This document shows positions 4,360-63,470 of a stretch of 64,000 bases of DNA, one piece after another (positions within the stretch are counted from its first letter, which is position 1; the number at the start of each line of letters is the position of its first letter). The notes beneath the pieces are model-generated. The model did not search any database and was not told the origin of the DNA. It saw nothing but the letters and a program-made list of their open reading frames with translations. The translations under genes and the position numbers were made by a program. Source of the stretch: Mobula hypostoma (Eukaryota); contig NC_086097.1 in assembly GCF_963921235.1 (NCBI RefSeq), positions 153,142,001 through 153,206,000 on the forward strand, given 5' to 3'.

Positions 4360-4499
4360 CTTATGAGTACAATCCTATCAATCCATTCTTCTTATTTCTT
4401 CAAGACCCTGCTGTGTATTCCTTCCCATTAATTCCTGACTTGATTCTTCCATCACATTCCTGCAGTGTGGGTAATTAAGTAAGCCACTTCTCTTAAAAG

Positions 4500-8640: not shown

Positions 8641-8689
8641 GTGACCTAGAACCACTCTATTTTGTTTACTGTCACAACATGTCAACAGC

Positions 8690-9065
8690 AAAGGTCATTT
8701 CATTGGTTTTTCACTCAGCTCTGAAATATCTGGACAATGAAGATGTATGGCAACACACACAAAATGCTGGAGGAACTCGGCAGGCCAGGCAACATCTATC
8801 GAAAAGAGTAAATAGTCGACTGTTTACTCTTTTCCATAGGAGCTTCCTGGCCTGCTGAGTTCCTCCAGCATTTTATGTGTGTGCTTGGATCTCCAGCATC
8901 TGCAGATTTTGTCAGCTTAATGAAGATGCATATGCCAGGATGCTCATTATTGACTACAGCCTAACTTTCAACACTAATTACTAATTCCCAATACATGGGC
9001 TTCAGTACCACCCCATGTAACTGTATCCTCGATTTCCTCACTGACAGACCCAAGTCAGTACAAGG
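8690..9065 (+). mobile_element. Rex1/Babar RT fragment interrupted by a pLTR palindrome
   Basis: Reads 'LDNEDAYARMLIIDYS...ILDFLTDRP' once 8748-8918 is removed. Confidence 0.65.
8748..8918. mobile_element. Fold-back pLTR insertion
   Basis: Inverted arms centred on GTC|GAC (8815-8820); direct repeat AATGAAGATG at 8736-8745 and 8919-8928. Confidence 0.85.
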
Positions 9066-19619: not shown

Positions 19620-19751
19620 AACAACAGGAATTCTGCAGATGCTGGAAATTCAAGCAACACACATAAAAGTTGCTGGTGAACGCAGCAGGCCAGGCAGCAT
19701 CTCTAGGAAGAGGTGTAGTCGACGTTTCAGGCCGAGACCCTTCGTCAGGAC
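19620..19751 (-). mobile_element. Solo Penelope pLTR insertion (132 bp)
   Basis: 11-bp TSD TGTATTTCATT (19609-19619, 19752-19762); absent from the sister CR1 copy near 33585. Confidence 0.92.
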
Positions 19752-19752
19752 T
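19717..19752 (-). ncRNA. Minimal hammerhead ribozyme motif
   Basis: Minus strand: agtc-CTGACGA-a-gggt(ctcg)gcct-GAAAC-GTC-gact. Stem I, catalytic core and stem II are present; stem III is reduced, as in PLE hammerheads. Confidence 0.75.
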
Positions 19753-21644: not shown

Positions 21645-24149
21645 TTGATGTAAAATGTAAAAAGAAACGGGCCCAACACGGACCCCTGTGGAACACCACT
21701 AGTAACCGGCAGCCAACCAGAATAGGATCCCTTTATTCCCACTCTCTGTTTCCTGCCAATCAGCCAATGCTCTATCCACGTATGTAACTTTCCCGTAGTT
21801 CCATAGGCTCTTATCTTGTTAAGTAGCCTCGTGTGTGGCACCTTGTCAAAGGCCTTCTGAAAATCCAGATATACAACATCCACTGCATCTCCCTTGTCTA
21901 GCCTACTTGTAATTTCCTCAAAAAATTGTAATAGGTTTGTCAGGCAGGATTTCCCTTTAAGAAACCCATGCTGAGTTCTGTCAATCTTGTCATATGCCTC
22001 CAGGTACTCTGTAACCTCATCCTTGACAATCGACTCCTTAACAACTTCCCAACCACCGATGTCAAGCTAACAAGTCTATAATTTCATTTTTGCTTCCTTG
22101 CCCTCTTCTTAAATAGCAGAGTGACATTTGCAATCTTCCAGTCCTCCGGAACCATGCCAGAATCTATCGACTTTTGAAGGATCATCGCTAATGCCTCCAC
22201 AATCTCCACAGCTACTTCCTTCAGAACACGAGGGTGCATTCCATCTGGTCCGGGAGATTTATCCACCTTTAGACTATTCAGCTTCCTGAGTACTTTCTCT
22301 ATCGTAATTGTGACTGTGCACACTTCTCTTCCCTGCCACCCTTGACTGTTCGGTATACTGCTGATGTTTTCCTCAGTGAAAACTGATGCAAAATACTCGT
22401 TCATCAAGGAATAATTTCAAGTTGCAGACCATCTCCACCTTTAATCCCACAATGAGGACTGGCTCATGGACTTCTCGTTTCCTTCTCCTCAAGTCAATAA
22501 TCAGCTACTTGGTCTTGCTGACATTGAGTGAAAGATTGTTGTTGTGGCAGATTTTCAGTCTCCCTCCTATATGTTGACTCATTACCACATTGTTTCAGCC
22601 AATGACAGTGGTGTCATCAGCAAACTTAAATATGGCATTGCAGCTTTGCTTAGCCTTACAGTCATAACTGTAAAGTGAGTAAAGCAGAGGGCTAAGCACA
22701 CAGCCTTATGTGCTCATGGAGATGGTGGAGGAGATGTTGGTTCCAATCCAAACTGACTAGGGTCTGCAAGTGAGGAATTGAGGATCCAATTGCACAAGGA
22801 TATATTTAGGCCAAGGTCTTGAAGCTTATTGATTAGTTGTGAGGGGACAATAGTATTAAATACAGAACCGTATCAATGAATAGCATCCTGATGTTTGCAT
22901 TTTCACTGTTCAGGTGTTCCAGGGCAGGGTGAAGAGTCAATGAAATGGCTTCTGCTGTTGACCTGTTGTGACGGTAGGAAAATTGGAGCAGATCCAAATC
23001 ACTTCTCAAGCGGGAGATGATGTGTTTCATCGCCAACCTCTCAAAGCATTTTGTCACAGTGGATGTAAGTACTACTGGATGATAGTCACTGAGGCAGGTT
23101 ACCACGTTCTTCTTAGGTGCCAGTATAATTGAAGCCTGCTTGTTGCAAGTGGATACTTCAGACTGCTGAAACGAGAGGTTAAATTTCTCAGTGAACACCC
23201 CAGCTAATTAATTAGCACAGGTCTTTAGTACTTGTCCAGGTACCCATCTGGACTGGATACTTTCTGTGGGTTCACCCCCCTGAAGGATGCTCTCACATCA
23301 GTCTCAGGTCCAAGATCACAGGGTCACTAGAGGGCTGTGAGAGTTTGTGAAAGTTCCACCATGCTTTGATCGTCAAGGGCCAGCCTAGAAGGCATTGAGC
23401 TCATCAGGGAGTGAAACCTTGTTGTCACCTATGTCGCTTGGTTGCACTTTGTAAACAGTAATAGCATTCAAGCCCTGTCATAGCTGTTGATCGTCCTTCA
23501 TTGATCCAAGTTTGGTCTGGAATTGCCATTTTGGACATGAGATGGCTTTCCAGACATCTCATCTGGACCTCTTGTATCTTTTTCAGTCACCAAATATGAA
23601 CGCCACTGATCTGGCCCTCAGCAGTTTGTAGATCTCATGGTTTATCCAGGACATCTGGTTGGGGGAGACTCTGATTGATTCTGGGGAGACACATTCATCC
23701 ATTACTGTTTTTATAAAGTCCATGATAGCTGTGGTATATTAATTCAGATACTATGATGAGTCGTTGAACACGGCCCAGTCCACCGACTGGAAGCAATCCC
23801 ATAACCACTTCTCTGCCTCCCATGCGCCCCTCTTTGTCGTTCTAATCCCTGGAGCTTTGCTCTTTAGCCTCTGCCTGTACACAGGTAGGAGAAGGACAGC
23901 CAAGTGATCTGATTTCCCAAAATGTGGTCGAGGCATTGAATGGTAGTATTGTTATATATAGCAGTAGTTGAGCATGTTGGGACCCTGATGCTGCAGGTTA
24001 TATGCTGATGATAATTGAGCAGAGATTTTTTCAAACAAGCCTGACTGAAGTCTCCAACTATGATCTGAACTGCATCGGGGTGTGCTGATTCTCGTTTGGG
24101 TATGGCAGCTTTCAATAACTTCAGTGCCTGATTATTTTTAATTATTTGT

Positions 24150-25197: not shown

Positions 25198-27663
25198 ACT
25201 GAATTGAATTAAATTGACTTTATTACTTACATCGTTCAAGGACATGGCAGACCAATTGAATAATTACTTTGGTTCTGTCTTCACTAAGGAGGACATAAAT
25301 AATCTTCCAGAAATAGTAGGGGACAGAGGGTCCAGTGAGATGGAGGAACTGAGCGAAATACATGTTAGTAGGGAAGTGGTGTTAGGTAAATTGAAGGGAT
25401 TGAAGGCAGATAAATCCCCAGGGCCAGATGGTCTGCATCCTAGAGTGCTTAAGGAAGTAGCCCAAGAAATAGTGGATGCATTAGTGATAATTTTTCAAAA
25501 CTCGTTAGATTCTGGACTAGTTCCTGAGGATTGGAGGGTGGCTAATGTAACCCCACTTTTTAAAAAAGGAGGGAGAGAGAAACCGGGGAATTATAGACCG
25601 GTTAGGCTAACGTCGGTGGTGGGGATACTGCTGGAGTCAGTTATCAAAGATATGATAACAGCACATTTGGAAAGCGGTGAAATCATCGGACAAGGTCAGC
25701 ATGGATTTGTGAAAGGAAAATCATGTCTGATGAATCTCATAGAATTTTTTGAGGATGTAACTAGTAGAGTGGATAGGGGAGAGCCAGTGGATGTGGTATA
25801 TTTGGATTTTCAAAAGGCTTTTGACAAGGTCCCACACAGGAGATTAGTGTGCAAACTTAAAGCACACGGTATTGGGGGTAAGGTATTGATGTGGATAGAG
25901 AATTGGTTAGCAGACAGGAAGCAAAGAGTGGGAATAAACGGGACCTTTTCAGAATGGCAGGCGGTGACTAGTGGGGTACCGCAAGGCTCAGTGCTGGGAC
26001 CCCAGTTGTTTACAATATATATTAATGACCTGGATGAGGGAATTAAATGCAGCATCTCCAAGTTTGCGGATGACACGAAGCTGGGTGGCAGTGTTAGCTG
26101 TGAGGAGGATGCTAAGAGGATGCAGAGTGACTTGGATAGGTTGGGTGAGTGGGCAAATTCATGGCAGAAGCAATTTAATTTGGATAAATGTGAAGTTATC
26201 CACTTTGGTGGCAAAAATAGGAAAACAGATTATTATCTGAATGGTGGCCGATTAGGAAAAGGGGAGGTGCAACGAGACCTGGGTGTCATTATACACCAGT
26301 CATTGAAAGTGGGCATGCAGGTACAGCAGGCGGTGAAAAAGGCGAATGGTATGCTGGCATTTATAGCAAGAGGATTCGAGTACAGGTGCAGGGAGGTACT
26401 ACTGCAGTTGTACAAGGCCTTGGTGAGACCACACCTGGAGTATTGTGTGCAGTTTTGGTCCCCTAATCTGAGGAAAGACATCCTTGCCATAGAGGGAGTA
26501 CAAAGAAGGTTCACCAGATTGATTCCTGGGATGGCAGGACTTTCATATGAAGAAAGACTGGATGAACTAGGCTTGTACTCGTTGGAATTTAGAAGATTGA
26601 GCAGGGATCTGATTGAAACGTATAAAATCCTAAAGGGATTGGACAGGCTAGATGCAGGAAGATTGTTCCCGATGTTGGGGAAGTCCAGAACGAGGGGTCA
26701 CAGTTTGAGGATAAAGGGGAAGCCTTTTAGGACCGAGATTAGGAAAAACTTCTTCACACAGAGAGTGGTGAATCTGTGGAATTCTCTGCCACAGGAAACA
26801 GTTGAGGCCAGTTCATTGGCTATATTTAAGAGGGAGTTAGATATGGCCTTTGTGGCTACGGGGATCAGGGGGTATGGAGGGAAGGCTGGGGCAGGGTTCT
26901 GAGTTAGATGATCAGCCATGATCATAATAAATGGCGGTGCAGGCTCGAAGGGCCGAATGGCCTACTCCTGCACCTATTTCCTATTTTCTATATACATGAG
27001 TAAAAATCTTTACGTTACATCTCCGTTTAAATGTGCAACATGCAATTTATAGTAATTTGTAATAAATAGTATGTAAAACAGGACAGTCAATATAACATAG
27101 AAATACAATTGTATCAGCGTGAATTAATCAGTCTGATTGCCTGGTGGAAGAAGCTGTCCCAGAGCCTGTTGGTCCTGGTCTTTATGCTACAGCACCATTT
27201 CCCGGATGGTTACAGCTGCAAAAGTTTGTGGTTGGGGTGACCCAGGTCGCCAGTGACCTTTTGGGTCCTTTTTACACGTGTCTTTGTAAATGTCCTGAAT
27301 AGTGGGAAGTTCACGTCTACAAATGCACTGGGCTGTCTGCACCACTCTCAGCAGAGTCCTGCAATTAAGGGAGGTACAGTTCCCATACCAGGCAGTGATG
27401 CAGCCAGTCGGGATGCTCTCAATTGTGCCCCTGTAGAAAGATCTTAAGATTTGGGGGCCCATACCAAACTTATTCAACTGTCTGAGGTGAAAGAGGCACT
27501 GTTGTGCTTTTTTCACCACACAGCCAGTATGTACAGACCACATGAGATCCTCAGTGATGTGTATGCCAAGGAACTTAAAGCTGTTCACCCTCTCAATCCA
27601 AATCCATTGATGTCGATAGGGGTTAGCCTGTCTCCATTCCTCCAGCAGTCCACAACCAGCTCC
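25198..27663 (-). mobile_element. Rex1/Babar 3' fragment with (CAATT)n-like tail, split by CR1 (25198-25236 and 26991-27663)
   Basis: ORF 27187-27732: 'FKFLGIHITEDLMWSVH..KKAQQCLFHLRQL..FYRGTIESI..CITAWYGNC'. Confidence 0.85.
25237..26990 (+). mobile_element. Young CR1 subfamily A, 5'-truncated, with an uninterrupted RT reading frame
   Basis: ORF 25214-26902 (562 aa) has all RT motifs; its first codons come from flanking DNA. Inserted into the 3' end of a Rex1 element. Confidence 0.96.
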
Positions 27664-27887: not shown

Positions 27888-29823
27888 AGATACATCCTGC
27901 GGATGCGCTGGGACGCATCATCAGTTGATGTAACCTGGGGTCGTCGGGTGTTTCAGGTCTTTCAACACCATACACCCTCGCCCCGGCGACCCAGCCGGGG
28001 TTGATCAGACCCCAGCTTGTGTCCCAGCAGCAATGGCCCACGGATCTCCTCTCCTGATCCATAGCCATCTGGAGGCTCTCTCAGCGGCCTCTGTGATGGT
28101 CCTGATCATTTTCCTCTTGCCAGTCAACAGTGATGCCAGGTAGGGTGTGGACTCTGCAGAGTGAGTGGCTGGCAGAACCCCTGCACCCCACTTCGATGGG
28201 CTCCCAGCGAGCCCTCCAGCCTTGTCCCCAGCACTGCTCCACCAGCTCCTGGTACTTGGCCCGCTTACGCTCATTTGCCTGCTCAATGTGGTCCTCCCAG
28301 GGAACTGTCAACTCAACGAGGACAACCTGCTTCGAGGACACTGAAGAAAGGACCACATCTGGCCTCAGAAAAGTTGTTGCTATTTGGTCGGGAAACTTCA
28401 GCTGCCTCCCCAGGTCAACTCCCCAGCCAGTCTGCTGAGGTGCTAAGCAGGCCCAGTGATGGTGCTGGTCTGGGCTGACGTAGGAGCTGTGATCCGGCTC
28501 TGACAAAGGAGATGTTCTTCCTCTGACCACTCTGTTTGCTGGTGGTCATGGCCATCGCAATGCTCTCTGCCACTGGCTTCAGCACCTGGTCATGACACCA
28601 CCGGTAGCAACCTTCCCCCAAGGCTTTAGGGCAGCTGCTAAGAATGTGCTCCAGTGATCATCTTCCTGAACAGAAAGGGCATGTTGGTGTATTGCTCTTG
28701 CTCCAGATGTGGAGGTTTGCAGGGCTTGGCAAGACATCATAGACAGCCTGGATCATAAATTTAGTGCGCTGGGGTTCTGCCTGCCAGATGTCAGAAAAGG
28801 AGATTTTCCACACCAGCGCATCTTCCCACCTTGTCCATTTTCCCTACTGCCGCATACACACCATCCTGCTATTCCTTTCCTCGTCAACGCCAGCCCGCAC
28901 TTCTTCCAGGATTAGTTGGTGCCTGTCCTTGCCTTTGCCCTAGTCATAGCGAGGTTGTGAAACAGAGCCCAGGCCCACTCGCACAGTTGACACTGATCCC
29001 ACCAGAGCCCTGTGTCTCAGCCGGGACTCTGCTACCACCAGCCCTCCCTGTGCCTTCCACTTCCTGGCCGTCCGTACCTGGATGCCTGCTGCTGCCACTT
29101 TAGGGTCCTTTGATTCTCTGTACTGCAGCACCTCTCTTGTGTGGGGAACCCTGAACTCCTCGTCCAGTTTGCTGAAGGGAAGTCACAGCTTATTGCACCT
29201 TCCGTACAATGCTGCACTGCTCAGACTACGAGGTAGGCCCAGCCACCTTCGAAAGTAGTTACTGACCTTCCTCTCCAGCAACTCCACAGTTGTCACAGGC
29301 ACCTTGTATATCAGTAGCGGCCACAGGATTCGGGGTAGGATGCCATGCTGGTAAATCCAGGCTTTGTACCTTCCAGGTAAACCTGACTTGTCCACCGTGG
29401 TAAGCCAGCTCTCATGCTCCTTGGAAGTTGATCGGATGGCAGCTGCATCTCTGAGGCTACAGTCAAAGACCTTCCCCAAGCTCTGACTGGCTTCTCGGTG
29501 ATAGATACAATTGTAGTGCCATCCAAGGTAAAATGAAACTTGTCCACTACTTTACCCTTCTTCAACACCATGAACCTGGATTTAGCTGGTTTGAAGCTCA
29601 TCCTTGCCCAAGCGATGAGCTTTTCCAGGCCCTGGAGGATCCACCTGCTGCCAGGAACTGACGTTGTCGTGACAATGAGGTCATCCATAAAGGCTCTGAT
29701 CGGGGGTTGCCAAACACCAGACTCAGTTAGCGGGCTTCTACACTCTGCCTCAGCTGCCTTGACTATCATATTCATGGCAAGGGCAAAGAGAATAATGGAG
29801 ATTGTGCACCCAGTTAAAACCCT
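27888..29823 (-). mobile_element. HERO-like non-LTR retrotransposon (RT, CCHC and restriction-like endonuclease), 5'-truncated and frameshifted
   Basis: 'AFMDDL', 'KSGLPGRYKAWIYQHGILPRILWPL', 'YRWCHDQVL', 'LRPDVVL..LVELTVPWED..ANERKRAKY..PIEVGCRG'. Confidence 0.9.
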
Positions 29824-30579
29824 TTCATAGCCACTCTGCTACTTGAATTTTTAAATAAGTTTGTATCCAGACTGATACAGCTCCTTTAATCCTTTAAGGT
29901 TTATATTTTAATGTCTATTACGTGACACATTATTAAATGCCTTTTGTAAGTCCACATGCAGATAGCAACCACACTAACTTCATCAGCAAACTCAATCAAG
30001 CTTATCAGGCATAATTTGCTTTTAATATATCCATTGTAGCAGTAATTTCTTAACCCATGTTTTTCCAAATAACACTTTCAGCTTGTGGACAAGGGAATTA
30101 ACGAGCCACTTATCACTCTCCCCTTTTTGGAATATTTGCAAGCTTCTAGGTTTGGAACTATCCTTATTTCTGAGAAAAAAAAGAAAAATTGTTGCTAGAA
30201 ATTGTTGTTTTAATGTTTATTACCTTCAGAATTCAAGGATGAATCTCATCCTAATCTCTGTGGCTCAGACTGTCTTAGGTCATTTTTTGGTTTTATTTAC
30301 CCTCTCAAATTACTCCATTTCCTCTTTGTTTTAGTGACCTTGAAGTATCTTCATATATTTTTTGCAGACTGTTGCAAATTACTTGAGTACACTGCCTCCA
30401 CAAGATGACCTCTATTTTTATTCATAATTGATCCTGTTTTTCCTTTAAGCACATTTGGTTCTATAAATTTATAAAGTTCTTCACAGCTGACTGATTTGTT
30501 ACCCACAAATGTTATGTCATGCATTCCACCTGCCACTCTCACTTCCTGACTCATTTATCTTCATCTTGTTCTTCAGGTT

Positions 30580-32764: not shown

Positions 32765-35547
32765 CATAAGACCATAAGACAAAGGAGCAGAAGTAGGCCA
32801 TTTCGGCCCATCGAGTCTGCTCCGCCATTTTATCATGAGCTGATCCATTTTATCCTATTTAGTCCCACTGCCCCGCCTTCTCACCATAACCTTTGATGCC
32901 CTGGCTACTCAGATACCTATCAATCTCTGCCTTAAAGACACCCAATGACTTGGCCTCCACTGCTGCCCGTGGCAACAAATTCCATAGATTCACCACCCTC
33001 TGACTAAAAAAATGTTTTCGCATTTCTGTTCTGAAAGGGCGCCCTTCAATCCTGAAGTCATGCCCTCTCGTACTAGACTCCCCCATCATGGGAAACAACT
33101 TTGCCACATCCACTCTGTCCATGCCTTTTAACATTTGAAATGTTTCTATGAGGTCTCCCCTCATTCTTCTAAACTCCAAGGAATACAGTCCAAGAGCGGA
33201 CAAACGTTCCTCATATGTTAACCCTCTCATTCCTGGAATCATTCTAGTGAATCTTCTCTGTACCCTCTCCAACGTCAGCACATCCTTTCTTAAATAAGGA
33301 GACCAAAACTGCCCACAGTACTCCAAGTGACGTCTCACCAGCGCCTTATAGAGCCTCAACATCACATCCCTGCTCCTATACTCTATTCCTCTAGAAATGA
33401 ATGCCAACATTGCATTCGCCTTCTTCACTACCGACTCAACCTGGAGGTTAACTTTAAGGGAATCCTGTACGAGGACTCCCAAGTCCCGTTGCATCTCAGA
33501 ACTTTGAATTCTTTCCCCATTTAAATAATAGTCTGCCCGTTTATTTTTTCTGCCAAAGTGCATAACCATACACTTTCCAGCATTGTACTTCATTTGCCAC
33601 TTCTCTGCCCATTCTTCCAATCTATCCAAGTCTCTCTGCAGACTCTCCGTTTCCTCAGCACTACCGGCCCCTCCACCTATCTTCGTATCATCAGCAAACT
33701 TAGCCACAAAGCCCTCTATTCCATAATCCAAATCATTGATGTACAATGTAAAAAGAAGCGGCCCCAACACTGATCCCTGTGGAACACCACTGGTAACCGG
33801 CAGCCAACCAGAATAGGATCCCTTTATTCCCACTCTCTGTTTCCTGCCAATCAGCCAACGCTCTATCCACGTATGTAACTTTCCTGTAATTCCATGGGCT
33901 CTTATCTTGTTAAGCAGCCTCATGTTTGGCACCTTGTCAAAGGCCTTCTGAAAATCCAAATATACAACATCCACTGCATCTCCCTTGTCTAGCCTACTGG
34001 TAATTTCCTCAAAAAATTGTAATAGGTTTGTCAGGCAGGATTTTCCTTTAAGGAATCCATGCTGAGTTCTGCCAATCTTGTCATATGCCTCCAGGTACTC
34101 TGTAACCTCATCCTTGACAATCGACTCCAACAAATTCCCAACCACCGACGTCAAGCTAACAGGTCTATAATTTCCTTTTTGCTTCCTTGCCCCCTTCTTA
34201 AATAGCGCAGTGACATTTGCAATCTTCCAGTCTTCCGGAACCATGCCAGAATCTATCGACTTTTGAAGGATCATCGCTAATGCCTCCGCAATCTCCACAG
34301 CTACTTCCTTCAGAACACGCCGGTGCATTCCATCTGGTCCAGGTGATTTATCGACCTTTAGCCTATTCAGCTTCCTGAGTACTTTCTCTGTCGTAATTGT
34401 GACTGCGCACACTTCTCTTCCCTGCCACCCTTGAGTGTCCGGTATCCTGCTGTCTTCCTCAGTGAAGACTGATGCAAAATACTTGTTCAGTTCCTCTGCC
34501 ATCTCCTAATCTCCCATTACAATTTCTCCAGTATCATTTTCTATTGGTCCTATATCTACTCTCACCTGTCTTTTACTCTTTATATACTTGAAAAAGCTTT
34601 TAGTATCCTCTTCGATATTATTTGCTAGTTTCCTTTCATAGTTAATCTTTTCTCTCTTAATGACCTTCTTGGTTTCCTTTTGTAAGGTTTTAAAAATTTC
34701 CCAGTCCTCTGTCTTCCCACTAATTTTTGCTTCCTTGTATGCCCTCTCCTTAGCTTTAACTTTGGCTTTGACTTCTCGTCAACCACGGTTGCATCCTTTT
34801 TCCACTCGAAAATTTCTTCTTTTTTGGAATATACCTGTCTTGCACATTCCTCATTTCTCGCATAAACTCCAGCCACTGCTGCTCTGCCGTCTTTCCCGCC
34901 AGTGTCTCTTTCCAGTCAACTTTGGCCAGTTCCTCTCTCATGCCACTGTAGTTTCCTTTACTCCACTGAAACACCGACACATCAGATTTCGGCTTCTCTT
35001 TTTCTAATTTCACAGTGAACTCATTCAAGTTATGATCACTGCCTCCTAAGGGTTCCTTCACCTCAATCTCTCTAATCACCTCCGGTTCATTACACAATAC
35101 CCAATCCAGTACAGCCGATCCCCTAGTGGGCTCAACAACAAACTGTTCTAAAAAGCCATCTCGCAGACATTCTACAAATTCTCTCTCTTGAGATCCAGTG
35201 CCGACCTGATTTTTCCAATCTACTCGCATGTTAAAATCCCCCACAATTATCATAACACTGCCCTTCTGACAAGCCCTTTCTATTTCCTGTTGTAATTTGT
35301 AGTCCACATCCCTGCAGCTGTTTGGAGGCCTATAAATAACTGCCATCAGGGTCCTTTTACCCCTGCTATTCCTTAGCTCAACCCATAAAGATTCTGTACC
35401 TTCCGATCCTATATCACCTCTTTCTAATGATTTAATATCATTTCTTACCAATAAAACCACGCCTCCCCCTCTGCCTACCTTCCTATCCTTCCGATACACC
35501 GTGTATCCTTGGACGTTCAGCTCCCAGAGACATGCATCCTTTAGCCA
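32765..35547 (-). mobile_element. CR1 subfamily B, most of ORF2 (APE endonuclease plus RT)
   Basis: ORFs 34756-35589 ('IIVGDFN', 'GGSDHN') and 32859-34502 (547 aa RT); one frameshift near 34775 and a TAG near 34507. Confidence 0.96.
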
Positions 35548-36009
35548 GCACATTTCTGAGCACATAATTCCAGAAAAGTTGCATAGCATGCTCTTTGAAT
35601 GGAGAAATGATGAGTCAGTATGAATAATGAATAGTGGATGGATTCAATAAAACAATCCAGCAAGACCACACATGTTTTATATAAAACTGGTATAAATAGG
35701 TCATGAATTAATATAAAGCAATATACTAACATACTTAATATACTATCATGGTATAGTTCTTGGCAGTAGAGTTGCATCAATATTTTCCAGGAATTTTTAT
35801 CTTTGTTTTGTCTTTTCATCTCATTTTCTGACTGACTGCCAGGTATATTGCCTGTGTTTTTTTTTTCTACTTAGATAGAGCATAGTAACTTGACCAGAAG
35901 AACCCATAATATTACCTGAATTATGAACAGGTTAATCTGATCTCTCTTCACTGAAGCAACAACAAAGCACTAGAGGAATTCAGCAGGCCAGACATAAGTG
36001 TTTGCTTTG

Positions 36010-39000
36010 TGACTATCCCACTGTGATGCATAGATATGATAGTTCTGTCTCAGTCCTGATCTGCCAAACTGCAACATCTGGCTGTTAAGTTTCATTCATC
36101 CTATCAGCTGAGGCAGTTTTCCACCATCAACCTGGTAGAGGTGTACATTCCATTCCTGGCCAATATCAAGCTGGCACTGGAGGAGCTGAGCACTGTGATC
36201 AACAGTTACTAGTCAGTGGACTCTGATGCCTTCCTGATCAGAGCAGGGACTTCAACTTGAAGAAGTCTCTGGCCAACTATAACCAGCAGAGCCAAAGAAG
36301 CCAATACACTCAATCACTATTATACCACCATGAAGAAACTTTGCCATGCCATACTGCCCCTGCACTTTGGCAAGTCTGATTGCCTGACTCTACCTCTACT
36401 CTCAATGTACAGGTAGAGATTGAGAACCACTGCACCAGTCTGAGAACCATGACGGTATGGTCAAGGAAAGTACGGAAGTGTTTATAAGATTACTTTGAAT
36501 CAATGGACCGGACCATCATCATAGGATCTGAATAAGTATGCAATAGTTATCATAGACTTAAAGAGTCATGTGCCTTCGAGAATATATTGAGTCTTCCTAA
36601 GACAGATGTCTTGGATGAACCAGAACATCTGGAGTCTGTTGAAGGCTATGTCTTTGACCATCAAGACCAGTAATCCTGAACCCTACAAGAAGTCCAGTGA
36701 TAACCCATGGCAAGTTATCCAGAGAGTGAAAGGGCAATTCTTTGTAAAATTAGAGGCATAATTGGATGCATAGCAGCTGTGGATCACAAGCAGGATCTGC
36801 ATACCACTACTTCCTCTAACGCAAAGGATAACATCATAAATGGCAGTGATGTTTCAGTCCCCGAGGAGCTCAACATTTTTTATGCACACTTTGAAAGGGA
36901 GAATAAAACCTACTCCTGCATGAATCCCCACAGCATCTGATGACCCTGTAACCTGTCTCAGAAGTCAACCTCAGAATATCCTTCAAGAGGGTGAACCCAG
37001 ACAAGGCATCCAGCTCTGACAATGTAGCTGGCCAGATGCCAAAAATCTGTGCCAAACAACTGGCTGCATTGTTCAAGAACATCCACCTCTCAACGCTGTC
37101 AACTGAGGATCCCACATGCTTCAAAATGGCGGCAACCAGGCAACCAAGAGGAGCAGAAAGAGCTGCCTCAGCGGCCGCTGCCTAGTGCCATCACATATAC
37201 TTTGATGAAGTGCTTTGAGAGGTTGGTTATGGCTAGAAGCAAAGCCTACCTAGGCAAGGACCTGGACCCACTGCAATATGCCTATGGCCACAACAAGTCT
37301 ATAGGCATGCAATCTCTCTGGCTCCCTTCTCAGCACTGGAACACCTTGATAACGGAAAAACATATGTCAGACTGCAGTTTATCGATTACAGCTTGCTATT
37401 CAATACCATAATCTCCTCAGTATTAATCAGAAGGCTTCAAAACATAGGCCTCTGCAGCTAGATACTCGACTTCTTTATACAGAAACCACTGTCAGTGCGG
37501 ATCAGTAATAACATCTTGTCATGGTCCGGTCCGTGAAGTCCGCATTCCAGTTCACGGTCCGGTCCGTGGACTCTGGACTCCAGGTCTTCCAGCTGTCCCT
37601 TGTTTGGTTGATCGTAGGTACCTGATTTCCATCTTGAGGCTTGGAATATAAGTGGCCTTGGGGTCAAGTGTGAGCTGCTGGTTTGTCTTGTCAAGATTTC
37701 CAGGGAGCAACCTGCCAGTGGAAGGCTAGTGCGGCCACTTGCCATCTTTAGGCTGTGTAGGAGAACCATTGCTTCATGGAGCCTTGCTGTTGGTAGTTGG
37801 AGCTGTCTTGGTGGTATGGATTCCGCTGTTTCCTGGGCCAGCTGAGTGGCTGCCAGCTTCTCTGAGCTAGGTAGGGATCTGGCTGTTTCCGTAGCCAGCT
37901 GAGGTTGCTGGCTGTAACTGCTACTCGGAGCAACCCGGATACAGAGATGGAACAGTCTGTTGTTCTTTGGTGCTTGTCTCTTCTTGTCCTCGCCTCTATG
38001 GGATAAGTCAGGACATTCTGCCATTGGCCTGTGGGGGGACCTGTCTTGTCTTGTCTTTGCCTCTGTTGGGTAAGTCTGGCCATTCTGCCATTACCCAATG
38101 GATGGTCCTGTCCCACTTAGGTGTGGAGATAAAGTTGAGTCCCAGCTTGTCTAAGTATAAGTCCTGGCTCGATGTCTATGTACTGTCCTGTCTCATATTG
38201 ATGTTGTGTTGAAGGTGAGTCCTGGCTTTTCGAAGGATAAGTCCCAGCTCCATGTTGATGTACAGTTCCCAGTCTGTCTCCTTGCTCCAGCCTCTGAGTT
38301 ATCAGCCTTCGCATTCCAAGACTTAAACCCCGTCTCCAAGCTCAAGCCTCAAGACCCGAGACCCCAGCCTGCAGCCTCAAGACCCAAGACCCCAGCCACA
38401 TCCTGTCCTATAGTCATGTCATGTCCTTGCCTGGTTCTGGGGTCCAAGCCCAAGCCCGAGGCAAGACCCAGATTCTGGGTCCTTGTCCAGTCTCTGGCTC
38501 AGAGCCCAAGCCCAGGCTCCTAGTGCATAGTTCCTTGTCTGGGTTCCCTGTCTTGTCCATGTCCTAGCCCAAGTCTGTGTTTTTGTCCCTTCTCCTTGTC
38601 TGTATCCTGTCATGTCCCTACTCTAGTCAAGTCCTATTCCTTGTACTTCAGTGCCTGTGTCTTGCACTTGGGTCCACTACCAGTGCCCCCTTTGCAACAC
38701 ATCTCCTTATTACTGACAGTCAACAAAGTCCCACCACAAGGATGTGTGCTCAGCCCACTGTTCTACTCTTTTCTGCACCCAACACTATGTGGCTAAGCAC
38801 AGATCAACCACCATAAACTTGCCAGTGACTCCAGTGTTGTTGGTAAATTCTCAGATTGGAATGGGGAGTGAGATAGATCAGCAAGTTGAGTGGTGTATTA
38901 GCATCAACAATATAAAGGAATTGGATGTGATCTCCAGCAAGGGGAGATTAGAGAATATACTCCAAACCTTATTGAGAGGTCAGTGGTGGAAATCAACATA

Positions 39001-46829: not shown

Positions 46830-47900
46830 CATCCTAAAAAAAATCCACTACCAGGCTCATTGTCCCCACTCCTTCCCATTCAGCATTTTCCAGGGACCAT
46901 TCTGGACCATGTGACTCCCTCTTCCATTCTCATCAACCTCTTTTTTTTATGGCTTTTACCTTTGCAACCGCAGGTGATGCAACACAGGTCCTATTACTTC
47001 TTCCCTTCCCACCAACCAGGGATCTAAAGGAGGTCTGAGAAGACTGAGAAGGTACTTGTGCAATATTTGCAATGGCATGAATTGTGAAGATGAAGTAAAG
47101 CAGGTGAACAAAGGAATTAATAAATATTCTTGGTGAGGAGTTCACAAATACAAGAATATCTGCAGATACTGGAAATCCAAGCAACACACGCAAATGAAGG
47201 GTCTTGATGAAGGCTTTCAGCCCGAAATGTCAACTGTTTACTCTTTTCCATGGAGGTTCCCTGGCCTACTCAGTTCCTCCAGCATTTTGTGTGTGTTGCT
47301 TGGTGAGGATGTGATAGTTTTCCACTGAATTGAGCTGTTTGTGAAACTTGAAGATAAACTCATTCATCTTTCCAGGTAAAGCAGCTATTCACTGGCACGT
47401 TTTCCAATCTCGAACACTGCATTCCAGATACGCTATGTGGTTTCCTCTACTTTGAAGAATCCAAACACAGGTTAGATGATTACTTTGTGGAATATCTGCA
47501 TTCAGTCCACAGTGATAACCTTGAACTTCCCACTGTCGGCCACTTTAATTCTTTATCCCAATCCCACTCTGACCTATCAGTCTGTCTGCTCATCAGAGAA
47601 AGGCTTGAGACAAGCTCAAGGAACAGTATTATGTCTGCTGCCTGGGCACATTGCAGCCTTTTGGACCCAATATTGAATTCTACAACCTCAAATAACTTGA
47701 TTTTAAAGTCTGTATTGGTCATCCTTCTGTAATATTAGCTCTGCACTTTTTCCTTTCATTTTGTTTCTCTCTGTGAGTGAAAGAGATGCCTGGTAGATCA
47801 CACATTCTACTGTCTACTATCTTTGGTCTATTAGTTGCTTCCCTTCCCACACCGACCAGATCCTCTTGTTTATAGCTTATCACCATGGCAACCACAGTTT
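46830..47900 (+). mobile_element. Old Penelope GIY-YIG remnant
   Basis: Degenerate similarity to the 62593-63318 protein ('PTVGHFNSLSQSHSDLSV' versus 'PVATYFNSTSHSHSDMSI'). Confidence 0.65.
47140..47298. mobile_element. Partially inverted pLTR insertion
   Basis: 11-bp direct repeat CTTGGTGAGGA (47129-47139, 47299-47309); degenerate hammerhead 'ttgatga..cccgaaatgtc'. Confidence 0.75.
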
Positions 47901-51367: not shown

Positions 51368-54300
51368 ATAGAAACATAGAAACATAGAAAATAGGTGCAG
51401 GAGTAGGACATTCGGCCCTTCGAGCCTGCACCGCCATTTATTATGATCATGGCTGATCCTCCAACTCAGAACCCCGCCCCAGCCTTCCCTCCATACCCCC
51501 TGACCCCCGTAGCCACAAGGGCCATATCTAACTCCCTCTTAAATATAGCCAATGAACTGGCCTCAACTGTTTCCTGTGGCAGAGAATTCCACAGATTCAC
51601 CACTCTCTGTGTGAAGAAGTTTTTCCTAATCTCGGTCCTAAAAGGCTTCCCCTCTATCCTCAAACTGTGGCCCCTCGTTCTGGACTTCCCCAACATCGGG
51701 AACAATCTTCTTGCATCTAGCCTGTCCAATCCCTTTAGGATCTTATACGTTTCAATCAGATCCCCCCTCAATCTTCTAAATTCCAACGAGTACAAGCCCA
51801 GTTCATCCAGTCTTTCTTCATATGAAAGTCCTGCCATCCCAGGAATCAATCTGGTGAACCTTCTTTGTACTCCCTCTATGGCAAGGATGTCTTTCCTCAG
51901 ATTAGGGGACCAAAACTGCACACAATACTCCAGGTGTGGTCTCATCAAGGCCTTGTACAACTGCAGTAGTACCTCCCTGCTCCTGTACTCGAATCCTCTC
52001 GCTATAAATGCCAGCATACCATTCGCCTTTTTCACCGCCTGCTGTACCTGCATGCCCACTTTCAATGACTGGTGTATAATGACACCCAGGTCTCGTTACA
52101 CTTCCCCTTTTCCTAATCGGCCACCATTCAGATAATAATCTGTTTTCCTATTTTTGCCACCAAAGTGGATAACTTCACATTTATCCACATTAAATTGCAT
52201 CTGCCATGAATTTGCCCACTCACCCAACCTATCCAAGTCACCCTGCATCCTCTTAGCATCCTCCTCACAGCTAACACTGCCACCCAGCTTCGTGTCTTCC
52301 ACAAACTTGGAGATGCTGCATTTAATTCCCTCATCCAAGTCATTAATATATATTGTAAAACAACTGGGGTCCCAGCACTGAGCCTTGCGGTACCCCACTA
52401 GTCACCGCCTGCCATTCTGAAAAGGTCCCGTGTATTCCCACTCTTTGCTTCCTGTCTGCTAACCAATTCTCCACCCACACCAATACCTTACCCCCAATAC
52501 CGTGTGCTTTAAGTTTGCACACTAATCTCCTGTGTGGGACCTTGTCAAAAGCCTTTTGAAAATCCAAATATACCACATCCACTGGTTCTCCCCTATCCAC
52601 TCTACTGGTTACATCCTCAAAAAATTCTATGAGATTCGTCAGACATGATTTTCCTTTCACAAATCCATGCTGACTTTGTCCGATCATTTCACTGCTTTCC
52701 AAATGTGCTGTTATCACATCCTTGATAACTGACTCCAGCAGTTTCTCCACCACCGACGTTAGGCTAACCGGTCTATAATTCCCCGGTTTCTCTCTCCCTC
52801 CTTTTTTAAAAAGTGGAGTTACATTAGCCACCCTCCAATCCTCAGGAACTAGTCCAGAATCTAACGAGTTTTGAAAAATTATCACTAATGCATCCACTAT
52901 TTCTTGGGCTACCTCCTTAAGCACTCTAGGATGCAGACCATCTGGCCCTAGGGATTTATCTGCCTTCAATCCCTTCAATTTACCTAACACCACTTCCCTA
53001 CTAACATGTATTTCGCTCAGTTCCTCCATCCCACTGGACCCTCTGTCCCCTACTATTTCTGGAAGATTATTTATGTCCTCCTTAGTGAAGACAGAACCAA
53101 AGTAATTATTCAATTGGTCTGCCATGTCCTTGCTCCCCATAATCAATTCACCTGTTTCTGTCTGCAGGGGACCTACATTTGTCTTAACCAGTCTTTTCCT
53201 CTTTACATATCTATAAAAGCTTTTACAGTCAGTTTTTATGTTCCCTGCCAGTTTTCTCTCATAATCTTTTTTCCCCTTCCTAATTAAGCCCTTTGTCCTC
53301 CTCTGCTGAACTCTGAATTTCTCCCAGTCCTCAGGTGAGCCACTTTATCTGGCTAATTTGTATGCTTCTTCTTTGGAATTGATACTATCCCTAATTTCTC
53401 TTGTCAGCCACGGGTGCACTACCTTCCTTGATTTATTCTTTTGCCAAACTGGGATGAACAATTGTTGTAGTTCATCCATGCAACCTTTAAATGCTTGCCA
53501 TTGCATATCCACCGTCAATCCTTTAAGTGTCATTTGCCAGTCTATCTTAGCTAATTCACGTCTCATACCTTCAAAGTTACCCCTCTTTAAGTTCAGAACT
53601 TTTGTTTCTGAATTAACTATGTCACTCTCCATCTTAATGAAGAATTCCACCATATTATGGTCACTCTCACCCAAGGGGCCTCTCACAACAAGATCGCTAA
53701 TTAACCCTTCCTCATTGCTCAAAACCCAGTCCAGAATATCCTGCTCTCTCGTTGGTTCCTCGACATGTTGGTTCAAAAAACCATCCCGCATACATTCCAA
53801 GAAATCCTCTTCCTCAGCACCTTTACCAATTTGGTTCACCCAATCTACATGTAGATTGAAGTCACCCTTTATAACTGCTGTTCCTTTATTGCACACATTT
53901 CTAATTTCCTGTTTAATACCATCTCCGACCTCACTGCTACTGTTAGGTGGCCTGTACACAACTCCCACCAGCGTCTTCTGCCCCTTAGTGTTACGCAGCT
54001 CTACCCATATCGATTCCACATCTTCCCGGCTTATGTCCTTCCTTTGTATTGCGTTAATCTCTTCTTTAACCAGCAACGCCACCCCACCTCCCCTTCCTTC
54101 ATGTCTATCCCTCCTGAATATTGAATATCCCTGAACGTTGAGCTCCCATCCCTGGTCACCCTGGAGCCATGTCTCTGTGATCCCAACTATATCATAATCA
54201 TTAATAACAATCTGCACTTTCAATTCATCCACCTTATTACGAATGCTCCTTGCATTGACACACAAAGCCTTCAGGCGCTCTTTTACAACTCTCTTAGCCC

Positions 54301-54757
54301 TTATACAATTATGCTGAAAAGTGGCCCTTTTTAATGCTTGCCCTGGATTTGTCGGCCTGCCACTTTTACTTTTCTCCTTAGTACTTTTTGCTTCTACCCT
54401 CACTTTACACCCCTCTGTCTCTCTGCACTGGTTCCCATCCCCCTGTTGTGAACTAACCTCCTCACGCCTAGCCTCTTTAATTTGATTCCCACCCCCCAAC
54501 CATTCTAGTTTAAAGTCACCTCAGTAGCCCCCGCTAATCTCCCTGCCAGGATATTGGTCCCCCTAGGATTCAAGTGTAACCCGTCCTTTTTGTACAGGTC
54601 ACGCCTGTGCCAAAAGAGGTCCCAATGATCCAAAAACTTGAAACCCTGCCCCCTGCTCCAATCCCTCAGCCACGCATTTATCCTCCACCTCATCGCATTC
54701 CTACTCTCACTGTCGCGTGGCACAGGCAGTAATCCCGAGATTACTACCTTTGCGGTC
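51368..54757 (-). mobile_element. CR1 subfamily A with the ORF1 C-terminus (SGNH esterase-like) and a full-length but disrupted ORF2
   Basis: ORF1 'KKDGLHLNPRG'; APE in 53345-54499; RT downstream; stops at 53345 and 52096 and a frameshift near 52357; possible TSD TTTCCAATTT (51353-51362, 54761-54770). Confidence 0.96.
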
Positions 54758-55224: not shown

Positions 55225-55979
55225 TTCATTTCAAAGGTTCATTTATTATCAAAGTATGCAACTCTGAAATTCTTCTTCTCTAGATGGCCAAAAAACCAAG
55301 AAAGAAAAGAACAGCAGCATGATTTTTAACCCCAAATTCCCACTCCCTGCACAAAAAAACAAACAAATGGAAGAGGCACATCAACCCCCAAATTATTCTC
55401 CCGGCACACAAAAAAAAGGAGAAAGATTAGGCAAAAAACACACAATACAAAAAAAATATATAAGATTGAAAATTGGTCCATAGTCCAAGTCCACAACCAA
55501 AATGCAGAAAACCTTAACAACATTGTTCCTCTCCGTAGCAGAGCAATCTCACCAGTGATAAAGAGGCAGTCTCCTCTCTAGATAGCAGAGCAATCTCACC
55601 AGTGATGAAAAGACAGTCCCCCCTTTCCAGCCGCAGTGCGAGCCCTCAGGAATGAAAAAAACACCAGCCAGCGTTTCAATATCCCTTATCACTTTAATTG
55701 GTGAACAATGGAAGCTTTAATAGGTGAAATGGATCAAATGTAAGCTCACAGCCTTCTCGCCATTAGGTTCCCACATACAACCTTTGCATCCCGGACTTCC
55801 CTCAGAGACTGCAGAGCACTGGAACACTCAAACAATCTCCAAACTGTGATTCCAGAATTACATTAAAGATGAAATATAAAAATAAAAAACATAAAAGAAG
55901 TGAAATATACGGTTTCATGATCTATCCAGAAGATGTTGACCAATGGAGAGTTGTAGGCAGGTGCCATCTTGACCAGGAC
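55225..55979 (-). mobile_element. Non-coding, non-autonomous retroposon with a Rex1-like tail
   Basis: Minus strand starts 'gtcctggtcaagatggcac' and ends 'tactttgataataaatgaacctttgaa', like Rex1 3' ends in this window; internal 24-bp duplication at about 55536 and 55583. Confidence 0.55.
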
Positions 55980-57720: not shown

Positions 57721-57855
57721 GTAACACAGGCAAAATGCTGGAGGAACTCAACAGGCCAGGCAGCATCTATGTAAAAGAGTAAACAGTCGATGTTTCAGTT
57801 TGAGACCCTTCATCAGGACTGCATATTTCTGCATCTGCAGATTTTCTCATATTTC
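57721..57855 (-). repeat. pLTR derivative with an inverted tail fragment
   Basis: Minus strand cagtc-CTGATGA-agggtctcaaact-GAAAC-ATC-gactg; stem II is damaged. Confidence 0.75.
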
Positions 57856-59707: not shown

Positions 59708-61287
59708 CTCTCAATCTTCTTATGTTCCTGCACATTCTAATTGCCATGCTAGATCTTGATACAACCAGTCAGGATATTTTCAAGACCACATCTGTTTGTT
59801 AGAATGTTCAGCAACGTGCCCAACCTCCTAAGAAAGAAGCTGGTGTGCTTTCATTATAAATGCACCTATGTGCTGGTCCCAGGACAAGTCATCCAATATG
59901 TTAATGCCCAGAAATATAAAGCTGCTAACTCTCTCCACCAACAAATCTATAATGTAGAGTGATACATGCTCATCCTCCTTCACTTCCTGAAGTCAACAAT
60001 AACCTCTTTAGTTTTAGTTAGGGAGGGTCAATGGAAACGTGCTGAATTTCCTTATTCATGCTGTTGACAATATGGCACACAATTCTGGCAAGCTTCAAAG
60101 ATACTTATTACACTTTATGTGGCAAGTTACATCATAATAAAGGATATAGGCATGTACAACATTGGATACGAAAAGGAGCAGAGACATTTCAGGTTGTGAT
60201 CACGGGTCAAGTAAAAACAATCAAGACTCCACATACAAATAAAGTTAATGACAATGGCAGGTACAAGGAAGCTTTAAGTTATGACAAAATTAAGTGATTT
60301 TAAAACAAAAGAAATGGATATTGCCCATCCCCTCCACACATTACTTAAGTTATCTGTGCATAATGTTGATCAGCATTACTTTCAGAACTTTGGATTCTAT
60401 AGTTAACAATAGAAGCGACAATTGAAGTTAAGGGCTAGCATTAATCAAAATGTGGGCAAAGGATGATCAAGTCCTGGGCTCTAGCATTCAGTATGGTGGG
60501 ACAGTGAGTGTAGAGTTCTGAAGGGGGCTGAGGGCAAGTAACATTCAAAAACAAAAGTAGTGAATGCTTTAGCAAAAAGGCTAAACAGGGAAATAACAAA
60601 ACAAACCCAATTTAGGAATTACAAAAGAAGAAGGAAAGTTAAGGGTCAAAGTTGAGGTTATTGTCATATGCATAAGTACATGGGTGTAATAAAGAAACAA
60701 GCTTGCAGTATTTTCACAGATGCATAGGATCATGTAAGCAGAATCCATAAGAAAAGCATAAATTAAGCATGAATTATACATAAATTTTACAAGAAAGAGA
60801 ACAATTTAAACAAAATTACACCAACCTAATTTTAATGGAAAGTGATCAAAGACGTCATGTTGTTGCTAAATTGTGGTGATCATGGTTATGCTGGCTGGTT
60901 CAAAAACCAAATGGCTGAAACGAAGTAAGTGTTCTTGAACCTGATTTTTGTTGAAGGCAGGTTAACTAGTAATTGGAAAAAGATGCAATACTGGCAATCT
61001 AAAATAAACTAAATGTTAGGTCCATTCAACAGATGAAACAGCATGAGTAGGGAAAAAAACAAGAGGATCCTTAACCTGGAACAACGCCTTGCTTTTCTCT
61101 GTCCACTGAAGCTTCTTGACTGGCTGAGCAGTTCCAGTGTTTACAATTTTTTCATATCCATTACTGGTTTATTGTTCTATCAAATAAATGTATGGGATTC
61201 AATGGACTGATTGTCTTCTTTCCTTTCACCATCTATAGATCTAGATGATTTGAAATACTAACAAAAGTGGGCCTGTTCTGCTTCATG

Positions 61288-61745: not shown

Positions 61746-62198
61746 GCCCCATTTTAAGGTTTAGAGCTCAGATTTTGCTAGTGTTTTGGGGGCAGTTTTG
61801 CATAAACCTATAAGCCCTCTCTCACACAAGTAGCAGCAAGTTTCTGGACACCCATACAAATGTGGACGTCAGATGTTTACCGAGATCCAAGATATGATGG
61901 CAGAATATGGTATTAATGGTAAGACTCTTAGCAGTGTGGAAGATCAGAGGAATCTTGGGGTCCGAGTCCATAGGACACTCAAAGCTACTGCACAGATTGA
62001 CTGTGTGGTTAAGAAGACATACAGTGCACTGGCCTTCATCAACCGTGAGAGTGAGTTCAAGAGCTGAGAGGTAATGTTACAGCTGCATAGGACCCTGGTC
62101 AGACCCCACATGGAGTACTGCACTCAGTTCTGGTCACCTCACTACAGGAAGGATGTAGAAACTATAGAAAGGGTGCAGAGGAGATTTACAAGAATATT

Positions 62199-63318
62199 AA
62201 GCAACATACATCAAAGTTGCTGGTGAACGCAGCAGGCCAAGCAGCATCTATAGGAAGAGGCGCAGTCGACGTTTCAGGCCGAGACCCTTCGTCAGGACTA
62301 ACTGAAGGAAGAGTGAGTAAGGGATTTGAAAGCTGGAGGGGGAGGGGGAGATGGAAAATGATAGGAGAAGACAGGAGGGGGAGGGATAGAGCCGAGAGCT
62401 GGACAGGTGATAGGCAAAAGGGGATACGAGAGGATCATGGGACAGGAGGCCTAGGGAGAAAGACGGGGGGGGGGTGACCCAGAGGATGGGCAAGAGGTAT
62501 ATTCAGAGGGACAGAGGGAGAAAAAGGAGAGTGAGAGAAAGAATGTGTGCATAAAAAGGAGTAACAGCTGGGGTACGAGGGGGAGGTGGGGCCTAGCGGA
62601 AGTTAGAGAAGTCAATGTTCATGCCATCAGGTTGGAGGCTACCCAGACGGAATATAAGGTGTTGTTCCTCCAACCTGAGTGTGGCTTCATCTTTACAGTA
62701 GAGGAGGCCGTGGATAGACATGTCAGAATGGGAATGGGATGTGGAATTAAAATATGTGGCCACTGGGAGATCCTGCTTTCTCTGGCGGACAGAGCGTAGA
62801 TGTTCAGCAAAGCGGTCTCCCAGTCTGCGTCGGGTCTCACCAATATATAAAAGGCCACATCGGGAGCACCGGATGCAGTATATCACCCCAGTCGACTCAC
62901 AGGTGAAGTGATGCCTCACCTGGAAGGACTGTTTGGGGCCCTGAATGGTGGTAAGGGAGGAAGTGTAAGGGCATGTGTAGCACTTGTTCCGCTTACACGG
63001 ATAAGTGCCAGGAGGGAGATCAGTGGGGAGGGATGGGGGGGACGAATGGACAAGGGAGTTGTGTAGGGAGCGATCCCTGCGGAATGCAGAGGGGGGGGAG
63101 GGAAAGATGTGCTTAGTGGTGGGATCCCGTTGGAGGTGGTGGAAGTTACGGAGAATAATATGTTGGACCCGGAGGCTGGTGGGGTGGTAGGTGAGGACCA
63201 GGGGAACCCTATTCCTAGTGGGGTGGTGGGAGGATGGAGTGAGAGCAGATGTACGTGAAATGGAGGAGATGCGTTTAAGAGCAGAGTTGATAGTGGAGGA
63301 AGGGAAGCCCCTTTCTTT
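62199..63318 (-). mobile_element. Penelope-like retroelement, 5'-truncated: Cys-rich linker, GIY-YIG endonuclease, 3' UTR and pLTR
   Basis: 'CKRNKCYTC' and 'GVIYCIRCSRCGLLYIGETRRRLGDRFAEH..L.P.GMN'; the frame is open 63318-62593; 14-bp TSD TTTACAAGAATATT (62185-62198, 63326-63339). Confidence 0.93.
62263..62300 (-). ncRNA. Minimal hammerhead ribozyme motif in the Penelope pLTR
   Basis: tagtc-CTGACGA-a-gggt(ctcg)gcct-GAAAC-GTC-gactg on the coding strand. Confidence 0.78.
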
Positions 63319-63470
63319 AATATTCTTTACAAGAATATTGTCTGGATTGGGGAGCATGCCTTGTGAAAATAGTTTGAGTGAACTTGACCTTTTCTCCTTG
63401 GAGCAATGGAGGATGAGAGGTGACCAGATAGAGGTATATAAGATGATGAGAGGCATTGATTGTGCAGATA

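Follow-up and report, generated by a model that had tools for sequence, protein, structure and literature searches.

The 64,000-nt stretch of Mobula hypostoma DNA analysed here (the window) holds a minus-strand insertion within a LINE. Its parts are given below in window coordinates, sites A and B being the two places downstream of a hammerhead motif at which most copies of the family end.

62152–62184, plus strand: host LINE left of the insertion, in frame with 63340–63400 once the insertion and one target-site duplication are removed
62185–62198, plus strand: left target-site duplication (TSD), 14 bp, direct repeat
62199–63318, minus strand: 5'-truncated, putatively Neptune-type Penelope-like element (PLE) with the 3' third of the ORF, the 3' UTR and the hammerhead; it ends at site A
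62199–62263, minus strand: terminal segment from the hammerhead to site A, 65 bases; site A lies 101 nt from the first base of stem I
62264–62299, minus strand: minimal type I hammerhead, with a stem I of 4–5 bp, CUGACGA, a bulged A, a 4-bp stem II with G-U ends, GAAA, and a palindromic ACGU instead of stem III
62300–62592, minus strand: 3' UTR, 293 nt, pyrimidine-rich (81% over the last 150 nt)
62593–63321, minus strand: open frame of 242 codons plus stop, covering the end of the thumb, the linker and the endonuclease, without the reverse transcriptase (RT) core
62665–62889, minus strand: GIY-YIG endonuclease domain; Tyr at codon 190 (62752–62754) replaces the last His of the CCHH motif
62971–62997, minus strand: zinc-finger-like CX4CxxC linker, residues 109–117 (C109-x4-C114-x2-C117)
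63319–63325, minus strand: 5'-junction filler of 7 bases, target sequence inverted (9-bp inverted repeat, 3-nt loop)
63326–63339, plus strand: right TSD, 14 bp, direct repeat

The LINE hosting the insertion is presumably CR1-like. At the junction with the inverted repeat of the target (63317–63339), the seven filler bases belong neither to the element nor to the TSD and would have been added by snap-back extension of the target end. The original prediction placed an element at 62199–63339: the element is real, lies on the minus strand and occupies 62199–63325, but the proposed end takes in the right TSD.

The identification as a Penelope-like GIY-YIG element, first made from the sequence alone, is borne out by the CX4CxxC linker and by a Pfam match to GIY-YIG (PF01541) over residues 145–219 of 242, with an E-value of 3.6e-5 and 24.4 bits against a curated cut-off of 22.6. 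A CX2-5CxxC linker before GIY-YIG marks the Neptune and Nematis PLEs (Craig et al. 2021, PMC8557442), and the Neptune-type label used here is a provisional one, drawn from this motif, which Nematis has as well. The CCHH residues C152, C155 and H174 are kept and residue 190 is Tyr. The last His is present in 17 of 17 aligned relatives, and its base makes up 94% of the contig depth of one DNA run (X1) at the codon starting at 62754; the family has the full motif and this copy is broken. Run X1 describes the family in the same genome and may be the source of the window DNA, so that it offers no independent confirmation.

The nearest of the 35 protein matches, from a search restricted to proteins of 430–2000 residues, come from Hypanus (75%), Rhincodon (65%), Stegostoma (60%) and Chiloscyllium (55%); marine invertebrate or unnamed sequences come next, at 49% or less. 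This ranking points to a cartilaginous fish, probably a ray, as host. The closest relatives (P0002, P0017 and P0024) have an RT domain in an earlier part of their ORF. The fragment, which lacks the RT by truncation, begins to align at residue ~560 (561) of the 798-residue P0017, whose RT domain spans residues 284–469. The host LINE lies directly upstream of the fragment, where a source copy would have the rest of a full ORF with the RT core and an upstream terminal repeat. At 62240 and 62261 the element carries a minority base, another base making up 69% and 68% of the X1 depth. In view of the missing RT core, the His to Tyr change and the minority bases at these two terminal sites, we reject the earlier proposal that this copy is the likely parent of the short repeats described below. 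PLE sequence was also observed inside database proteins named as a divergent protein kinase domain 1C isoform (P0001), a sodium-dependent transporter (P0022) and a neuromedin-U receptor 1 (P0035), which are probably misannotated or chimeric gene models.

The hammerhead comprises the 5' strand of stem I (62296–62299), CUGACGA (62289–62295), stem II (62276–62287), GAAA-C-GUC (62268–62275) and the 3' strand of stem I (62264–62267), with a predicted cut between 62268 and 62267, inside a 6-bp palindrome. The CUGANGA and GAAA core, the UH cut site and the palindromic positions 15.2–16.2 are all present. The core pattern occurs three times in the window (in the element, at 19620 and at 57721) against 0.06 expected, a number reached in none of 100 shuffles. 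The minimal hammerhead had been called intact, which holds for the core and for the parts as described but not for stem II, closed by G-U where G10.1–C11.1 is usual. The same replacement is found in 4/4 young arms of the family, whereas the closing pair in related metagenome loci is G-C in 16/19, G-U in 2/19 and a mismatch in 1/19.

Minimal hammerheads are known in the pseudo-LTRs (pLTRs) of metazoan PLEs, including fish Xena, Poseidon and Neptune (Cervera and de la Pena 2014, PMC4209133). The type I architecture, the short stem I, the bulged base before stem II, the palindrome at 15.2–16.2 and the lack of stem III agree with the motifs reported there, and so does the occurrence of thousands of single motifs from truncated elements and of close motif pairs on opposite strands. 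The ray motif differs by its 4-bp stem II and its G-U closing pair, G10.1–C11.1 being conserved in that set, and the common start of the short copies at stem I is not described in the accessible parts of that paper.

An Rfam scan of the window at E-values up to 5 gave five matches, all below the gathering score and none of them a hammerhead, and the monomer folding energy was no better than that of shuffles (z 0.26), both of which are expected of a motif without stem III. Comparison with relatives drew on 79 metagenome loci that encode them, 42 of which include the end of the ORF and at least 300 nt behind it. In 20 of these 42 loci, identified with no pairing filter, a core follows the ORF by no more than 650 nt, against 0.14 in shuffles and 1 on the opposite strand. 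With one locus (L047) dropped because its contig breaks off there, the 19 others, chosen by core only, and the element give 14 distinct strand pairs of stem I. Of their 56 stem I cells, 45 are paired, where permutations average 26.5 and none of 20,000 was as high, although this count overstates independence because the loci are related to one another. In an alignment of 12 rows (A2), nine of them from other loci that had been chosen with a pairing filter, both-sided changes occur in 5/5 pairs of stem I and 0/4 pairs of stem II. Covariation, which had been proposed as a check of both stems, thus backs stem I alone. The read-through tail of a Stegostoma protein (P0003), judged from the protein only, is compatible with the same core.

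Conservation of the core, the other check proposed, is evident across the related loci but not among the old local copies. In six old local arms the core is changed in 9/54 cells and the rest in 88/463 non-CpG cells, a comparison of low power with its 54 core cells, and the core is kept at 3 of the 12 loci in the window. The old copies having diverged in the core as in the rest, selection on the hammerhead probably acts in the active lineage only and not on inserted copies, within the same low power. Any cleavage would take place as a dimer or with the help of the element's protein; dimer cleavage of minimal hammerheads is attributed to Lunse et al. in a review (PMC6765202). In the element, the probability of stem I falls from 0.3–0.65 to 0.04 or less when at least 12 UTR bases are added. 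A conserved upstream hairpin that would silence the 3' hammerhead was considered and, as a general feature, dropped: of the 13 motifs scored, just 2 reached the 5% tail given by shuffled upstream sequence or fell below it, five more having been skipped for their short stems.

The family is present at many other places. A profile search of the window gave 12 loci at E-values of 6e-4 or less, against a best E-value of 1.1 in the reversed window, the profile being built partly from the copies themselves and starting at stem I. Besides the element, these loci are:

1070–1176, minus strand: old single-armed copy (1076), from stem I to site A, decayed core
1483–1614, minus strand: old single-armed copy (1481), from stem I to site B, decayed core
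2131–2193, minus strand: very old extra copy, E-value 1.4e-6, ends uncertain
4130–4359, no strand assigned: young two-armed hairpin insertion (4127), 98-nt arms 95% complementary, 13-bp TSD, core mutated
4498–4815, minus strand: old longer copy (4500) that runs upstream into the pyrimidine-rich UTR, an ordinary 5' truncation and no short unit
7148–7283, plus strand: old single-armed copy (7150), from stem I to site B, decayed core
8746–8918, no strand assigned: older hairpin insertion (8748), 10-bp TSD, without core, turning at the 6-bp palindrome that holds the predicted cut site
19620–19752, minus strand: young single-armed copy, 133 nt, from stem I to site B, 11-bp TSD, intact core
35949–35993, minus strand: extra 45-nt fragment, E-value 6e-4, beginning downstream of the hammerhead
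47140–47298, no strand assigned: older two-armed insertion, 11-bp TSD, forward arm from stem I to A, inverted arm with the tail to B
57721–57853, no strand assigned: older copy from stem I to A, core kept, stem II broken, with a second-arm remnant of ~25 nt ending at B (by eye)

The near-identity first noticed between the terminal ~100 nt of the element and the repeats at 19620 and 4127 amounts to 94% for the former and to 92% and 89% for the two arms of the latter. The seven loci listed as older relatives (1076, 1481, 4500, 7150, 8748, 47140 and 57721) are all real, with arms 57–72% identical to the terminal region and E-values of 1e-23 or less by profile, or of 7e-11 to 1e-3 with the element's end alone as query; 2131 and 35949 were found in addition. 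Three loci are young (at least 89%) and the others, where measured, stand at 57–72%. Young arms differ from one another at 4–6 of 91 sites and from the element at 6–8 of 91. The short repeats and the PLE share a lineage, and the family is as abundant as had been supposed: besides its 12 loci within the 64-kb window, one DNA run supplies 270,576 contig records that align to the element. The older copies come from an earlier subfamily and are not, as had been thought, derivatives of the element at 62199–63318. Among viral contigs, the hammerhead DNA motif had no match, and protein alignment gave 19 pattern matches of which none was confirmed. Seven of the 12 loci lie within the first 9 kb of the window (1070–8918). 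A borderline match to the short unit at 61071–61128 (E-value 0.06) is excluded from all counts.

The ends of these copies follow a pattern, which the counts describe for one 64-kb window. Five loci have TSDs, of 14, 13, 11, 11 and 10 bp. Most 3' ends fall at one of two sites, 32–36 nt apart: counted from the start of stem I, site A lies at 101 nt and site B at 133–137 nt. In all four two-armed loci (4127, 8748, 47140 and 57721) the arms end at different sites, one at A and one at B; at 4127 the forward arm runs from stem I to site B and the inverted arm ends at site A, neither arm having an intact core. Among the 11 loci besides the element, seven start within ~5 nt of stem I, while 4500 extends into the UTR, 8748 turns at the cut-site palindrome, 35949 starts in the tail and 2131 has an uncertain start.

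Ordinary random 5' truncation, with the common start as a detection effect, could be invoked here: 5' truncation is the rule for PLEs (PMC8557442), the copies at 4500, 35949 and 62199–63318 end elsewhere, and a profile that starts at stem I cannot give matches reaching upstream of it. We regard this explanation as quite improbable, because the TSDs and arm junctions set the stem I start of 19620, 4127 and 47140 without the profile, and because the flanks upstream of six short copies are not UTR-like, at 33–52% pyrimidine against 81% and 71% in two long copies. The X1 contigs also show a pile of 508 loose ends at 62299, where stem I begins, with a flank agreement of 0.39, the largest among the piles listed, and one of similar size (469) at the ORF stop. 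The flank consensus of the 62299 pile is purine-rich and UTR-like, and this pile is confounded, for long copies of subfamilies with other UTRs would break the alignment at the same base. The hammerhead and tail have only about double the contig depth of the UTR, a level that the last bin of the ORF equals; the depth step was consequently dropped as a gauge of short-copy excess. Sixty-three contigs of another run (X9), which is only guessed to be RNA and consists of contigs only, so that it bears on neither RNA ends nor strand nor expression, pass from site A into the tail.

The element at 62199–63318 is a dead, 5'-truncated member of a putatively Neptune-type PLE family that reaches very high copy number in a cartilaginous fish. 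As the explanation that best fits the whole, and one that we hold to be likely, the short copies would be aborted cDNAs that the enzyme of this autonomous family primes within its RNA, and not an independent SINE. The RT and endonuclease of the family would nick the target and begin cDNA inside their own RNA, at A or B, ~100 and ~135 nt beyond the point where the hammerhead starts. The cDNA would often halt at the 5' edge of the hammerhead, leaving single-armed copies of 100–135 bp; use of both target strands, or fold-back of the cDNA at a short palindrome, would give a two-armed copy with arms ending at A and B; less often, the cDNA would pass through the 3' UTR into the ORF, resulting in long copies such as 62199–63318. 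The short repeats would then be siblings or older cousins of this long copy, produced by full-length copies elsewhere, probably dead on arrival and left to neutral decay.

Such a process has a biochemical counterpart in the Poseidon element of the anole (PMC11167929). In the in vitro work described there, two internal RT start sites bound a tail of 30–40 bp, both target strands were extended, RNA beyond the start sites was needed, templates shortened at the 5' end gave shorter products, and hammerhead cleavage was dispensable. The spacing of 32–36 nt between A and B matches the tail between the anole start sites. If the geometry is alike, the short copies would lack the RNA downstream of the start sites that the anole enzyme needs.

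The short copies had been proposed to form the non-autonomous part of a ribozyme-retroelement system, and in the SINE sense this finds no support, given the lack of Pol III boxes and of tandems, the variable architecture and the neutral decay of the core. Master short copies could nevertheless be transcribed and their RNA copied in trans by the Penelope enzyme, as in a SINE- or retrozyme-like family. The short units do have set 5' and 3' ends and their own TSDs; one base near 62250, common to the two arms of 4127 and to 19620 and absent from the element, could mark a short-only subfamily. Action of pLTRs in trans is described in rotifers (PMC3846280), and an origin of animal retrozymes from pLTRs has been proposed (bioRxiv 10.64898/2026.07.22.740005). 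Against this, each two-armed locus has a separate hairpin junction, short copies occur in both the old and the young subfamily, as is expected of a recurring by-product, and the core is kept in just 2 of the 11 loci other than the element. With the standard Pol III A and B box consensus, no box was found in the 133-nt unit at 0 or 1 mismatch. Nor were there tandem arrays of the short unit among the eight tandem rows or the 12 loci of this one window, active retrozymes being defined by at least two tandem hammerheads (bioRxiv 10.64898/2026.07.22.740005). An independent short family thus appears unlikely to us.

For the by-product origin that we prefer, the halt at stem I has three candidate causes: the 5' end of the RNA, a splice acceptor as in Drosophila virilis, or snap-back at a palindrome. 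Immediately upstream of stem I (62300–62325, minus strand) we recognise what we take to be a branch-point-like word, a pyrimidine tract and CAG, bases that would equally fit an initiator consensus. In Penelope of D. virilis, the intron ends at helix I (PMC4209133).

Were snap-back the cause, the pile of 5' ends would not mark an RNA end: nascent cDNA would fold back at the stem I palindrome, and the hairpin would be either extended, giving two arms, or opened and trimmed, giving one. Young and old copies alike have this short palindrome, whose centre lies in the 5' strand of stem I, and the hairpins turn at varied short palindromes, in stem I at 4127, at the cut site at 8748 and in stem II in the related locus L052. 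The 5' junction of the element itself shows such synthesis and, together with the turns inside the L005 and L052 hammerheads, indicates that snap-back does occur; palindromes at the 5' ends of rotifer pLTRs and self-priming have also been described (PMC3846280). What weighs on the other side is that single-armed copies such as 19620 share this start, with a clean TSD and nothing to show for a second arm, and that a hairpin of 4–5 bp with a 2-nt centre is weak. We consider this a real possibility, if one somewhat short of even chances; it changes the cause of the stop and leaves the by-product origin in place.

The hairpin of L052 lies at 5856–6007 of that locus. In L005, a long PLE ORF is closely preceded by a 158-bp hairpin (50–207), perhaps inserted separately, whose forward arm begins exactly at the 5' strand of a hammerhead's stem I; the motif behind that ORF (2790–2830) is a different, degenerate hammerhead. 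Nearly all hammerheads of the invertebrate relatives retain their own upstream UTR, and L005 alone starts at stem I, so that the sharp start is not general there.

Cleavage of the RNA by the hammerhead in vivo, with the short copies as reverse transcripts of the 3' product, would account for the turn at 8748, which falls exactly on the predicted cut site. The 6-bp palindrome at that site accounts for the same turn equally well, the whole uncut motif is found in 7 of the 11 loci, and the main substrate of the anole enzyme is described as unprocessed RNA, with no RNA-seq ends at the site (PMC11167929). This origin seems to us very improbable.

It is also conceivable, though rather unlikely, that the by-products are strong-stop-like cDNAs: the RNA of the element would start at the first base of the hammerhead, and the RT, starting 100 or 135 nt inside, would run off its end. 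Run-off at the 5' end would imply that a full copy needs a jump from the 5' to the 3' end, as in LTR retroelements. If so, the jump would regenerate the pseudo-LTR, dimer priming at A and B on opposite strands would give the two-armed copies, the motif could fold in its 5' copy alone, and the very numerous copies of this genome would preserve a fossil record of each step of Penelope-like retrotransposition.

The structural hallmarks of PLEs are found here in TSDs of variable length (10–14 bp), a tail of 32–36 nt and four two-armed loci. The C-terminal GIY-YIG with two Cys between GIY and YIG and the CX2-5CxxC linker recall the Neptune clade, as do heavy 5' truncation, inverted 5' copies and a 30–40-bp tail on one end only (PMC8557442), whereas the 62199–63318 copy lacks the RT core and one His of CCHH and the inverted structures measure only 130–230 bp overall. 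The Anolis carolinensis Poseidon PAc (Frangieh et al. 2024, PMC11167929) also has its hammerhead ~110–150 nt upstream of two tail-defining RT start sites. It belongs to another clade and its ORF starts at stem II, whereas the frame spanning the motif here stops within 16 codons. The non-LTR (animal) retrozymes (bioRxiv 10.64898/2026.07.22.740005) are likewise non-coding, with a type I hammerhead and an origin in PLE terminal repeats, and one chondrichthyan is reported among them; they are head-to-tail tandems with at least two hammerheads, unlike the single or head-to-head units of the ray. Inverted repeats with TSDs, of 8–10 bp in the rotifer, an optional one-arm tail, junction palindromes and solo pLTRs are shared with the inverted-pLTR Penelope elements of Adineta vaga (Arkhipova et al. 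2013, PMC3846280), whose copy number is very low and whose hammerheads are not analysed in the text consulted.

Fish Neptune hammerheads, their dispersal as truncated copies, PLE-derived retrozymes, the tail and the inverted arms are already published. For the sharp start at stem I that the short copies show, the accessible texts of the papers searched gave no precedent, and no paper in the same literature joins Penelope, hammerhead and strong-stop. At the level of titles and listings, this literature holds no description of this PLE family for cartilaginous fish, and a whole-word text search of the Squalomix preprint found six repeat terms absent. The rebuilding of the pseudo-LTR and the role of the hammerhead are presented as open questions in the consulted parts of two papers (PMC2377424, PMC8557442). 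A young family with many short, TSD-flanked copies and sharp ends makes models of PLE retrotransposition testable by counting. For genome annotation, such repeats are to be treated as PLE termini, and gene models that absorb PLE ORFs, such as P0001, as suspect.

The window harbours further repeats. Long frames of up to 564 codons at 20438–22066, 25208–26902, 32859–34505 and 51466–54520 are presumably CR1/L2-like LINEs of the RT and AP-endonuclease type. On the minus strand at 28081–29838, fragments that we take, by their motifs, to resemble another non-LTR element would carry a restriction-like endonuclease and an RT. Tandem repeats of two to three copies, unrelated to the Penelope element, lie at 37519–37583, 37975–38112 and 55536–55606, with periods of 33, 67 and 23–24.
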